A DNA stretch of 64,000 nucleotides, from assembly GCA_001662655.1 (NCBI GenBank), contig KV460207.1; one strand, given 5' to 3'. The position numbers were made by a program, and so were the translations under genes. Numbering within the stretch: the first letter of the stretch is position 1; each line of letters opens with the position of its first letter. Below, piece by piece: positions 34,629 to 37,623 of the stretch. A model generated the notes under the pieces. It did no database searches. It was not told where the DNA came from and worked only from the letters and a program-made list of their open reading frames with translations. The DNA comes from Pseudogymnoascus verrucosus (lineage: Eukaryota).

Positions 34629-35102
34629 TAACGTACATGTATAGCGAACCGGCCAAAATATCACGACCACCTCACAAGGATTGAGATAAATCTACCACAA
34701 CACTAGAAATTAATTGAAACTACTCAGAGTACTCTTTCTTAGACGTGTCTACTATAATCTAACAAGTGCGCGCATTATGTCCTGTCTTACTACACTTTCT
34801 ATAGCGTCGTGCACGCGTTTCTTCCCTTAGCTTCCAACTACTACTCACCCTAATTTCCTACTCTACCTACTGTATAACATCCCTCTCGTCCTATAGCTCC
34901 TGCGCTCCTTCTTAACTAATTATTTCTCCTTGCTATAGCTGTGTTTTTTTAGCTCTCCTACGCTTGCTTAGCACTTTATTTGCCTATTATAGGTATTAGT
35001 TCTCTGCTTTTAGTAACGTACATGTATAGCAAGCAGCGCATCTAAGCGAGCGGCGCACTTTATTATACTCTACCTATGCAATAGTACATAATTATATACC
35101 TA
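34629..35102 (-). mobile_element. RIP-degraded 3' ends of two older pogo/Fot1-type elements
   Basis: TA+ACGTACATGTATAGC termini at 34629 and 35014. The minus strand reads LKAEN*YL**ANKVLSKRRRAKKTQL*QG..RRYRKCSKTGHNARTC*, a decayed transposase C-terminus with zinc knuckle. Confidence 0.8.
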
Positions 35103-35104
35103 TA

Positions 35105-36943
35105 ACGTATTTCACAAGCGAGTGGCCCACACAAGCGAGTGGCCCACGAAAACACCAAAACGCGTCAACTTAACAGAAGTCAATATGACACAACCAACAC
35201 AAACCCAATCCTCTAATCAGGAGGGTAGAATACTATTGGCTATTAGTGCAATTAAACAAGGCCAGTTTCGTAGTGTTCGAGTAGCTGCAGCATCGTACGA
35301 TATACCTCGAACGACACTACGTCGACGAATTGAAGGAATGACTTCTAGACGCGACTCTACCCCTAGTTCGCAGAATTTGACTCCGTACGAAGAGTCAGCT
35401 CTCGTTCAATATATCCTCGACCTAGATTCACGTGGATTTCCGCCCCGGCCGCAAGCTGTACAAGAAATGGCTGACCTTCTACTCTCCGAACGAGGTGAGA
35501 GCCCTGTTGGGAAGAACTGGACTAGCAACTTCATTAAGCGTCGTACGGAAATCAAAGCAAAGTTTAGTCGGAAGTACGATTATAAACGAGCAAAATGTGA
35601 AGATCCAAAGATAATTGAAGGGTGGTTCTCCCTCGTACGAAACACAGTTGCAAAATACGGAATCTTAGAGCAGGATATCTATAACTTTGATGAAGCAGGT
35701 TTCGCAATGGGAGTTATTGCTACTGCAAAGGTAGTCACAAGCTTAGAAGCAAAGAGCCGTCCGAAGACTATACAGCCAGGGAATAGAGAGTGGGTGTCAA
35801 TTATCCAAGGTGTCAATTCGTACGGATGGGCACTCCCGCCGTTCATTATTTTTAAGGCGCAGAATCACCTCTCTACTTGGTACGAGGACTCAGAATTACC
35901 AGACGATTGGGTGATTACACTAAGTGAGAATGGGTGGACTTCAAATTCAATTGGGTACGAGTGGATTCAACACTTCGATCGATATACAAGCACTCGTACG
36001 ATCGGAACCTATCGCCTTCTTATTCTCGACGGACATGAGAGCCACCTCTCAGCTCAATTTCAGCACTACTGCACAGAACAGAAGATAATCACCCTCTGTA
36101 TGCTACCACACTCCTCACACATTCTTCAGCCGCTTGACGTGAGCTGCTTTGCTCCACTAAAGCTTTCGTACGGACGTCAGATTGAAACCTTCGTACGGAA
36201 CAGGCTCAACCATATTACGAAGCTTGAGTTTCTCTCTGCATTTAAAGAAGCATTCAAAGCTACATTTACAGAACAGAACATTAAGAGCGGATTCCGAGCT
36301 ACAGGGCTAGTTCCGTACGAGCCACAGAGTGTTCTCTCTTACTTAAATCTACGCTTAAGGACTCCAACCCCTCCGATAGTTAGGAGTGACAATTGGACTT
36401 CAAAGACTCCCCAAACTATAAGGGAGCTTAACTTTCAAACAGAGCACATTAAGAACCGCATCGTACGACATCAGAACAGCTCTCCTAGCTCAATTAATGA
36501 TGCTATTAGCTGCCTTGTTAAAGGGGCAGAAATAATGATGCATTCTGCTGTTCTACTAAAGGCAGAAGTTAAGGCTCTACAAGTAGCAAATGAACAGAAA
36601 AAGAGGAAGGAAAGGAAGCGTAAGAGACGTATAATGCAAGGGGGAAGCCTCTCCGTACGAGATGCAGAGGATATACTTCAGAGTGCTGAGGTTGATGCTC
36701 AAGTCCGAACGGAGGTGGCAAGTGAGAGTAGTCGGCAGGTGGGCTCTAAAGGCCGACAGAAGCGCTGTGGCCGATGTGAGAAAATAGGACATAATACCCG
36801 TACGTGCGAGAGGCGCCAGGAATCAATTACGATCGAATAATGGTTATTATGTAGGGTGGTAGTGTAGTAGTAGGTAGTAATAGTCAATTTTGGTGTTTTT
36901 GTGGGCCACTCGCTTGTGTGGGCCACTCGCTTGTGAAATACGT
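35105..36943 (+). mobile_element. Intact pogo/Fot1-like Tc1-mariner DNA transposon (1839 bp)
   Basis: 56-bp TIRs at 35105-35160 and 36888-36943 with one mismatch, each holding a 17-bp tandem CACAAGCGAGTGGCCCA. TA target duplication at 35103-35104 and 36944-36945. Confidence 0.97.
35185..36840 (+). CDS. pogo-family transposase (HTH_psq, CENP-B HTH, DDE_1, CCHC knuckle)
   Basis: Uninterrupted ORF with IPRTTLRRR, YNFDEAGF, LILDGHESH, QPLDVSCF and CGRCEKIGHNTRTC. Confidence 0.96.
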   Translation: MTQPTQTQSSNQEGRILLAISAIKQGQFRSVRVAAASYDIPRTTLRRRIEGMTSRRDSTPSSQNLTPYEESALVQYILDLDSRGFPPRPQAVQEMADLLLSERGESPVGKNWTSNFIKRRTEIKAKFSRKYDYKRAKCEDPKIIEGWFSLVRNTVAKYGILEQDIYNFDEAGFAMGVIATAKVVTSLEAKSRPKTIQPGNREWVSIIQGVNSYGWALPPFIIFKAQNHLSTWYEDSELPDDWVITLSENGWTSNSIGYEWIQHFDRYTSTRTIGTYRLLILDGHESHLSAQFQHYCTEQKIITLCMLPHSSHILQPLDVSCFAPLKLSYGRQIETFVRNRLNHITKLEFLSAFKEAFKATFTEQNIKSGFRATGLVPYEPQSVLSYLNLRLRTPTPPIVRSDNWTSKTPQTIRELNFQTEHIKNRIVRHQNSSPSSINDAISCLVKGAEIMMHSAVLLKAEVKALQVANEQKKRKERKRKRRIMQGGSLSVRDAEDILQSAEVDAQVRTEVASESSRQVGSKGRQKRCGRCEKIGHNTRTCERRQESITIE

Positions 36944-36945
36944 TA

Positions 36946-37080
36946 ATAAAAATCAATTAAAGCTCTTTAGGATCCTCTTTAGGAGAGGTCTCTACTATAA
37001 TCTAACATGTCTGTACATTATGCTTAGTCCTACTACACTTACTATAGCAACGTGTATAGGTTTCTTCCCTTAGCTTATAG
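36946..37080 (-). mobile_element. Continuation of the RIP-degraded pogo relic interrupted by the intact element
   Basis: Homologous to 34710-34832 (tctactataatctaaca..cattatg..tactacact..tttcttcccttagct). Confidence 0.75.
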
Positions 37081-37227
37081 AATTAGGGTAGAATACAAGA
37101 GGCTGATAGCGACAGCAATAATGCTAACGATGAAGCACCTGAATAGGGGCTCGCAGAAAGGGGGCTCGTGGAAAGGGATTTACTACTATCAAAAGCTTCA
37201 TTTTATATACTCTATTCAGCCTCATGC

Positions 37228-37307
37228 ATCCGGATATATACCCTACTCTACCCGTTAGATCGTCGCTGGGTATATACCCTACCCAGATATGTATCCGTCA
37301 AACACTG
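37228..37307. mobile_element. Solitary hAT-like transposon end
   Basis: Reads CAGTGTTTGACGGATAC on the minus strand from 37307, with a subterminal repeat TATATACCCTAC present twice. No partner end seen. Confidence 0.45.
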
Positions 37308-37623
37308 CGACTGGGGCCAACAGGAATAGGGGCTACACCCGAACAGGGGCTTGGCACCACCAGGGCGGCAGTGCCAATTTTACACCTTTTCCGAGTGGCC
37401 TAGGCCATTTACCAATGCATACATTAATAGGTGGACTAGGCTATTGGCGAATAGCGTAGACCATTCATGAATGTGATTCATTGGCGACTGGACCAGAACA
37501 TATAATTGACATTGTTTCATGTTGTAATTAACTATAGTCGTGAATATTTAAATATTCATGATTAACTCGATTTCTTGTGCTAAACCTTGATATGAAGGGT
37601 TTAGATGTGATTACAAAACCAAT

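Follow-up and report, generated by a model that had tools for sequence, protein, structure and literature searches.

Evidence for a DNA-level signal laid over the protein code of a fungal transposase: a repeated CGTACG palindrome in a Fot1/pogo-type transposon of Pseudogymnoascus verrucosus

Introduction

A stretch of 64,000 nucleotides from contig KV460207.1 of Pseudogymnoascus verrucosus (assembly GCA_001662655.1), called the window below, contains a complete Fot1/pogo-type DNA transposon whose only gene, a transposase open reading frame (ORF) at 35185-36840, holds twelve copies of the palindromic hexamer CGTACG. The sequence comparisons presented here give good support to the view that these words represent a signal carried by the DNA itself on top of the protein code. 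The explanation to which about even credence is given is that they form an array of double-strand sites, that a putative dimeric protein, probably one of the host, reads them, and that selection on the transposon maintains the array. If the word is indeed a read signal, a compact eukaryotic DNA transposon would carry a second DNA-level code within its only gene, and this code would be strong enough to alter amino acids and would have evolved repeatedly. No iterated palindrome in a fungal transposase ORF was found described in the full-text literature, outside which most subscription journals lie. CGTACG itself is met there in primers and in unrelated uses, among them oligomers from the SELEX (systematic evolution of ligands by exponential enrichment) of C. 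albicans ZCF32, which start with CGTACG incidentally.

Occurrence of CGTACG in the transposase gene

The window holds 21 CGTACG words, and 12 of them fall within the ORF, where they span from 35294 to 36799 at a density of 7.25/kb. The remaining nine are found in 62,158 nt (0.145/kb), which is about the chance level of window shuffles (approximately 7.7 expected for the whole window). A sequence-only reading of this DNA had reported the twelve start positions, their codon phases and peptides, their flanks, their gaps and the small number of copies elsewhere; every start position proved exact and the other figures agreed with the recount. It had also named what would speak against a signal, namely a word equally common across the genome, which does not hold within the window, and shuffles giving similar counts. 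In synonymous-codon shuffles, which are permutations keeping the protein and the codon usage, the mean was 1.33 copies (standard deviation 1.06, n=5000) and the maximum 6, against the 12 observed, while codon-order shuffles (n=5000) gave a mean of 0.35 and a maximum of 4, and dinucleotide shuffles (n=2000) a mean of 0.23 and a maximum of 3; the count was thus not reproduced.

CGTACG is the most frequent hexamer of the ORF. Its own overlaps GTACGA and TCGTAC reach 10 and 8 copies and unrelated words 6, and in 500 additional synonymous shuffles every hexamer stayed at or below 7 copies. As host-gene controls of the kind that the sequence-only reading had proposed, nine host frames from the window were run; their top-listed hexamer excesses contained nothing comparable, the largest being GGGGGG (17 versus 9.7 expected) and GAAGAT (7 versus 1.9).

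It could be supposed that the words come from chance or codon usage, from the needs of the protein or from a repeat inside the gene, as nothing further than R-T, x-V-R and S/P-Y-x peptides is required for them. The protein permits CGTACG at 17 positions of the ORF, 12 of which are occupied: five in the phase xCG-TAC-G (phase 1), four in xxC-GTA-CG (phase 2) and three in CGT-ACG (phase 0). The use of three phases and the shuffle results argue against such causes, as does the reappearance of the word at other positions in relatives, and an internal repeat is contradicted by a protein that is colinear with ordinary DDE transposases. Chance and codon usage are excluded as the source of the array, amino-acid need cannot explain it, as had been claimed, and this whole group of causes is given practically no credence.

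The flanks of the word are also constrained. A pyrimidine precedes it in 12 of 12 cases and a purine follows it in 11, so that YCGTACGR fits all the sites except the one at 36799 (CCGTACGT). Tyrosine codons that are followed by G are TAC in nine of nine instances, in comparison to two of seven tyrosine codons not before G (Fisher P=0.005), and at three of the nine the codon before rules out a complete CGTACG. Partial sites of the form GTACGA, listed without strand, lie at 35574-35579 (K-Y-D, where the preceding codon cannot give C), 35880-35885 (W-Y-E) and 35955-35960 (G-Y-E).

The spacing is even as well. The 13 intervals formed by the tips of the element and the twelve sites are all 192 bp or shorter, and seven of the 11 inter-site gaps measure 145-192 bp, which is near the fungal nucleosome repeat length. 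For 12 random points in the ORF the probability of a largest gap of 192 bp or less is 0.0001, and that of a coefficient of variation (CV) of 0.35 or less is 0.0004.

The word in related elements

Homologues of the transposase are counted in thousands, the best of them 90, 87 and 86% identical, and they are mostly metagenome proteins on contigs of approximately element length. A single metagenome scan, whose query was built from 28 aligned close proteins, gave 79 loci (numbered with L below) of 47-74% protein identity. Summed over these loci there are 145 CGTACG, with 5-8 copies in 13 loci and none in 32, and among hexamers it ranks first, alone or in a tie, in L003, L010, L014, L016 and L055. 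Inside 40 complete relatives it occurs 61 times in 74,495 nt (0.82/kb) versus four times in 14,672 nt of their flanks (0.27/kb). L003, L014 and L016 also have their sites spaced more evenly than random (P 0.008-0.05).

Expected counts were obtained for 51 ORFs, that is for the window copy and 50 loci with ORFs of at least 420 aa (29 loci with shorter frames being excluded), from 100 synonymous shuffles per ORF. CGTACG was found 99 times versus 27.9 expected. Just two of the 64 palindromic hexamers, CGTACG and ACGCGT, are set apart from the others, with z about 14.5 and the next at 4.5; these z-scores are inflated because the counts share ancestry, nevertheless the contrast of CGTACG with all other words is large. 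Most of its one-letter neighbours are depleted (CGTTCG 3 versus 13.0, CTTACG 7 versus 23.9, CGAACG 18 versus 29.8), the exceptions being transitions of the outer letters, which are in excess (TGTACG 28 versus 10.0, CGTACA 38 versus 25.3).

The 99 occurrences occupy 34 distinct sites defined by alignment column and phase; one is present in 14 ORFs and two in 8, and many are private. In a FastTree tree of the 51 proteins, high counts appear in at least five separate clades with sisters at 0-1. The window copy with 12 and L003 with 7 copies stand against L001 and L002 with none, L016 (8) against L034 (0) and L047 (1), L010 (7) against L018 (2), and L050 (5) against L042 (1), a further high-count clade being that of L014 (8) and L048 (5). 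Judged from this distribution, the gains look independent across lineages. The CGTACG count offers a practical marker separating sub-lineages of the family.

Gain, persistence and decay of the sites

When the sites were compared one by one with relatives, many gains were seen to combine an amino-acid replacement with several base changes. The twelve sites carry no strand. Site 1 (35294-35299, phase 1, S-Y-D) lies in the context TCGTACGA. Site 2 (35384-35389, phase 1, P-Y-E) faces DLE, ELE or PKE in relatives and therefore arose by amino-acid change. Site 3 (35542-35547, phase 0, R-T) is Q-P in most relatives, site 4 (35634-35639, phase 2, L-V-R) is common to five distant relatives, and site 5 (35819-35824, phase 1, S-Y-G) faces AAG, ALG or AEG. 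Site 6 (35995-36000, phase 0, R-T) is present in 8 of the 51 ORFs and site 7 (36167-36172, phase 1, S-Y-G) in 14, its alternatives in relatives including CATATG, CGTACA, CGTATG and CATACG, which are CpG transitions. Site 8 (36192-36197, phase 2, F-V-R) faces LMR or LIR, and site 9 (36314-36319, phase 1, P-Y-E) is found in 5 of the 51. Sites 10 (36462-36467, I-V-R) and 11 (36654-36659, S-V-R) are both in phase 2, and site 12 (36799-36804, phase 0, R-T), the sole misfit to YCGTACGR, falls within the CCHC knuckle of the protein.

As an example of a gain, PKE, SQE or SEE in relatives corresponds to PYE in the window copy, with CCAAAGGA in the former and CCGTACGA in the latter, and a multi-base replacement is seen where relatives have TCCGAAGA and the window copy CCGTACGA. 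Other examples are QP versus RT, AAG/ALG versus SYG and LMR/LIR versus FVR; in L016, PPD has become PYD and KTP has become RTP. Losses proceed mostly via CpG transitions, and in close relatives the peptides IVR and SVR are changed to IIQ and SIQ. At most of the twelve places the relatives of 85-93% identity, compared at the level of peptides only, retain a peptide that permits the motif.

Persistence was assessed at codons where the amino acid is the same. At the motif codons of the window copy the same codon is used in 17 of 22 cases in L003, 15 of 23 in L005, 12 of 17 in L010 and 12 of 18 in L050, against 35-55% at the non-motif codons of those relatives; pooled, 56 of 80 motif codons versus 538 of 1145 elsewhere are identical (Fisher P=7e-5), these four motif-bearing relatives being hand-picked and not independent. 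Relatives without shared sites have the same motif codon in 3/15, 4/17 and 3/16 cases. The comparison, a check on diverged copies that had been proposed with the original observation, shows conservation of CGTACG at synonymous sites, beyond coding need. Among element copies in four runs, none of the 35 best-supported variants (there are 403 further ones) falls in the 72 motif letters, where approximately 1.4 would be expected, a shortfall well within chance (P=0.25).

These changes bear on the idea, already listed in the sequence-only reading, that the array is the end state of context-specific mutation, and on its extension to repair. Such a process could be mutation of the type of repeat-induced point mutation (RIP) or mutation linked to 5-methylcytosine, or a HIP1-like methylation-dependent short-patch repair; acting on methylated repeats, it would drive near-cognate words to CGTACG. 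A methylation-dependent repair model is proposed for cyanobacterial HIP1 in the relevant part of Elhai 2015 (PMC4390886), and P. destructans, which belongs to the same genus as the host, is reported in the pertinent section of a review (PMC7862722) with high CG methylation with DNMT1 or DNMT5, RID and Dim-2. In run X1 the changes that set other copies of the element apart from the window copy are chiefly C>T (92 places) and G>A (77), with T>C at 33 and A>G at 42 places, and the element has RIP-like indices, given below. The step from CGCACG to CGTACG (CpA to TpA) is seen between sisters, and the deviants are biased to the outer letters (TGTACG, CGTACA), as is reported for HIP1 in the same part of PMC4390886.

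The five phase-1 sites, on the other hand, are not makeable by C>T or G>A without amino-acid change, TAT>TAC runs opposite to that direction, and many gains need transversions and 3-4 base changes, which is not what is expected of RIP products, made by C>T/G>A in a fixed dinucleotide context. Most of the sites are beyond what RIP can produce, CpG transitions remove the word, as in the IIQ and SIQ peptides, and the ORF is intact; having no CpA or TpG, CGTACG would resist RIP of the CpA type. Precursor words are rare (about 0.5 expected per ORF), even spacing is not predicted, and sisters at similar divergence have 0 copies. A mutational or repair origin is thus disfavoured, chiefly by the phase-1 sites and the multi-base replacements, and is regarded as unlikely. 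Were the array a by-product of repair after all, it would parallel, in a eukaryote, the iterated palindromes of cyanobacteria.

The carrier element and its ends

With its duplicated TA the transposon occupies 35103-36945 on the plus strand, the element proper being 1839 bp long (35105-36943). The left terminal inverted repeat (35105-35160, plus strand) starts with ACGTA and has two direct copies of CACAAGCGAGTGGCCCA and no CGTACG, and the right one (36888-36943, minus strand) is its inverted match. The arms 35103-35160 and 36888-36945 measure 58 nt and are 98% complementary (56-58 nt with or without the TA); the 17-nt repeat CACAAGCGAGTGGCCCA is present in two copies in each inverted end, and TA is duplicated at both outer ends. 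The ORF (plus strand) encodes 551 aa with the Pfam domains HTH_psq (residues 13-53, E=3.9e-07), HTH_Tnp_Tc5 (66-125, E=7.8e-10) and DDE_1 (201-370, E=1.6e-30) and a C-terminal CCHC knuckle. Outside the ORF and the inverted ends only 24 + 47 nt of noncoding DNA are left.

In run X2, which is from another organism, position 35102 runs straight into 36944 on a contig of 21 kb; exactly 1841 bp are missing between them, and the flanks show 0-1 differences. As X2 carries the empty site, the insertion is polymorphic between organisms and recent. In the organism of run X1 the flanks are identical to the window, and the contig depth summed over the element exceeds that of the flanks 28-100 times, a figure which is not a copy number; 1140 contig pieces are at least 85% alike to the element, 159 of them at least 99% alike, hence the family is multi-copy. 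The window copy was thus inserted recently, belongs to an active family and lies near the unmutated form. By its domains, the carrier is an ordinary Fot1/pogo element, as it is by its inverted repeats, TA and recent mobility. With Fot1/pogo elements of filamentous ascomycetes (Tc1/mariner superfamily) it shares DDE_1 and a helix-turn-helix (HTH) of the CENP-B type, the inverted repeats, the TA, a length of 1.84 kb and one intron-less ORF; it differs in the iterated palindrome of its ORF, of which no report was found for such elements, the terminal repeats of the family being without CGTACG.

It is conceivable that the words are internal sites for the element's own transposase and serve as a transpositional enhancer or synapsis aid. 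Models for such internal sites are the subterminal hexamers of Ac and the internal enhancer of phage Mu. The ends of the family lend this idea some appeal: most of the 51 loci with detected inverted repeats end in TA followed by ACGT(A/G), 11 listed loci end in ACGTAC and so share CGTAC with the word, and CGTACG can be read as two abutted element tips, CGT and ACG. In addition, with the transposase as reader every lineage would possess the same conserved protein, and this would account for one word being gained repeatedly. Still, the inverted ends, where the transposase must bind (the two CACAAGCGAGTGGCCCA repeats), are without CGTACG, and ACGTAC ends occur equally in the zero-copy elements L013, L019, L032 and L053. 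Of the contexts of the word, the tip-to-tip form ACGTACGT is preferred least, with A at -1 in 27 of 156 and T at +6 in 17 of 156 occurrences, and in 0 and 1 of the 12 sites of the window copy. Five contrasts of high-count and low-count clades, a weak test, gave no convergent residue in the protein, columns reaching at most 3/5 and with different residues. Moreover, a eukaryotic transposase is made in the cytoplasm and gains no preference for its own copy. Subterminal arrays of the Ac and En/Spm type have their word in or next to the terminal repeats, whereas in 41 complete elements no CGTACG lies in the first 100 nt and one in the last 200 nt. Binding by the transposase is consequently considered improbable.

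Two further candidates were tried on the ends and rejected: an internal word co-varying with the tip sequence, since tips are alike whatever the count, and a mark of the insertion target, since the listed flanks show no CG-TA-CG context. In almost all the listed members of the family the tip also has AAGCGAG about 10 nt inside the terminal TA and ACGT(A/G), very conserved across 47-74% protein identity.

A putative reader of the array

According to the explanation put forward here, the twelve CGTACG would be cis-acting sites on double-stranded DNA, and their reader would be a sequence-specific protein of two-fold symmetry, more probably one of the host than the transposase. Selection on the transposon lineage would build up the array and keep it, the sites being written by synonymous choice, plus amino-acid change where the protein tolerates it, until the whole element is covered with one site per 200 bp or less. 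As there is almost no noncoding DNA in the element, the array must sit in the ORF. The exact palindrome with its symmetric Y...R flanks, the three phases, the confinement to the element, the repeated gains, the synonymous conservation and the even cover all fit a symmetric reader of double-stranded DNA, and a young element of a multi-copy family makes selection for activity plausible. Occupancy by the factor may hold the chromatin open or unmethylated, or may otherwise raise transposition or survival; the methylation report on P. destructans and the C>T/G>A decay of copies make a methylation-sensitive opening factor the favoured reading.

The broader supposition of the sequence-only reading, a DNA-level signal overlaid on the code, is borne out by the phases, the filling of permitted positions, the 34 column/phase sites, the gains that change amino acids and the even spacing. 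A more far-reaching version is that the array, present in several pogo lineages by convergence with one site per nucleosome-sized stretch, recruits a host protein against CG methylation, heterochromatin or RIP and so is an anti-silencing device. This version is possible but doubtful. If the array is a read signal at all, it would open a way to learn how fungi that methylate and mutate repeats can still harbour active DNA transposons.

The word might instead act in RNA, as CGUACG in the transposase messenger RNA (mRNA), bound by an RNA-binding protein or pairing between self-complementary copies, which would recall the clustered hexamers by which certain meiotic mRNAs of yeast are marked (the determinant of selective removal, DSR, read by Mmi1). 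All copies do lie within the transcribed ORF, with the near absence from the element ends noted above, and the second family word GACGCG(A/T), described below, has a preferred strand, as would be expected of a signal in RNA or in a promoter. There is, however, little noncoding DNA outside the constrained inverted ends, so that absence of the word there says little, and the exact palindrome with symmetric Y...R flanks suits a double-strand reader better. A signal in RNA therefore has a small chance of being right.

Several observations weigh against the array of double-strand protein sites. We know of no fungal factor of CGTACG specificity, and the other 62 kb of the window show no excess of the word and so give no hint of its use by the host. 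Palindromes make up 64 of the 4096 hexamers, and the palindrome could be a coincidence for an RNA signal. The RIP-like indices (TpA/ApT 1.14 in the element versus 0.85 in the rest of the window, (CpA+TpG)/(ApC+GpT) 0.94 versus 1.16, in the presence of an intact ORF) suggest that mutation has shaped the element to some degree. L001 and L002 are intact, with perfect ends, and have zero CGTACG, so the family as such does not need the word. Spacing was not even by CV in five of the eight other loci tested (L010, L048, L050, L064, L066). The inflation of the family z-scores by shared ancestry is to be counted here as well.

Comparison with known systems

Arrays of binding sites are known from other mobile elements, such as the Su(Hw) array of gypsy, the subterminal hexamers of Ac, the 12-mers of En/Spm and the transcription factor sites in the TYA ORF of Ty1, the last of which demonstrates that such sites can lie in coding sequence. 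Like them, the element described here has many copies of one short word, which in those systems is read by protein. Theirs are clustered in noncoding or subterminal DNA or are single sites, whereas the 6-bp palindrome of the present element is distributed evenly along the ORF and uses every codon phase. The CENP-B box is a 17-bp non-palindromic word of alpha-satellite DNA, and CENP-B is a domesticated pogo transposase. The likeness consists in a short CpG-containing word at about nucleosome-repeat distance and in a reader with the same HTH domains as this ORF; the box itself resembles neither CGTACG nor the end repeats of this element.

Bacterial DNA uptake sequences and Chi are likewise over-represented oligomers, and HIP1 (GCGATCGC) belongs with them. 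HIP1 shares with CGTACG, as far as the sections of PMC4390886 on this subject go, that it is a GC-rich palindrome over-represented in genes in all frames, that lineages replace or lose it, and that its deviants concern the outer letters. These prokaryotic words are genome-wide and tied to orphan methyltransferases, uptake or RecBCD, whereas the CGTACG array is confined to one eukaryotic transposon family. A high frequency throughout the host, as for HIP1, was not found within the window (nine copies in 62 kb), nor do the flanks of the relatives, at 0.27/kb, show it. It can be said that the array is only partly like mobile-element site arrays, CENP-B boxes and prokaryotic iterated palindromes.

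Other observations on the family and the locus

A second embedded word, GACGCG(A/T) or ACGCGT, is as enriched in the 51 ORFs as CGTACG (GACGCG 109 versus 27.3, ACGCGT 67 versus 14.8). Unlike CGTACG it is strand-oriented, with GACGCG 101 against CGCGTC 24 and ACGCGA 79 against TCGCGT 12. Its matches fall in the first 500 nt in 212 of 318 cases (41 complete elements) and occupy 83 distinct sites in all three phases; the window copy has only two words of this type, at 35160-35165 (in the 5' leader) and 35348-35354. GACGCG(A/T) resembles the MluI cell-cycle box and CGCG elements of the StuA type. CCGCGG is nearly absent from the 51 ORFs (1 versus 15.4 in synonymous shuffles) and TCCGCG is low (5 versus 21.2), a scarcity that looks like avoidance of a word at the DNA level. 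A class effect of Z-DNA or alternating purine-pyrimidine words was considered and rejected, with CGCGCG at 1.4x, CGTGCG at 0.52x and CGCGTG at 1.1x, and the non-alternating GACGCG at 4.0x.

The CCHC knuckle, C-x2-C-x4-H-x4-C at 36769-36810, is unusual-looking for a pogo transposase; its residues C528, C531, H536 and C541 are invariant in 28 relatives, and site 12 lies inside it. The genes around the element are ordinary fungal ones and encode DNA polymerase alpha, a Zn2Cys6 factor, GH43, GH3, an ankyrin protein and others. The polymerase shares 97% identity with a named protein of a Pseudogymnoascus sp., which makes the host a Leotiomycete of Pseudogymnoascus type. A direct repeat of 130 nt (34704-34833 and 36947-37076, 75% identity) flanks the insertion; it is also present in the empty-site contig and is thus part of the host locus, and among its 29 differences C>T (7) and G>A (6) are favoured. 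In run X1 the depth is also raised beside the element, at 34642-34755 (530) and 37150-37377 (3729) versus about 220 in the flanks, which probably reflects other small repeats.

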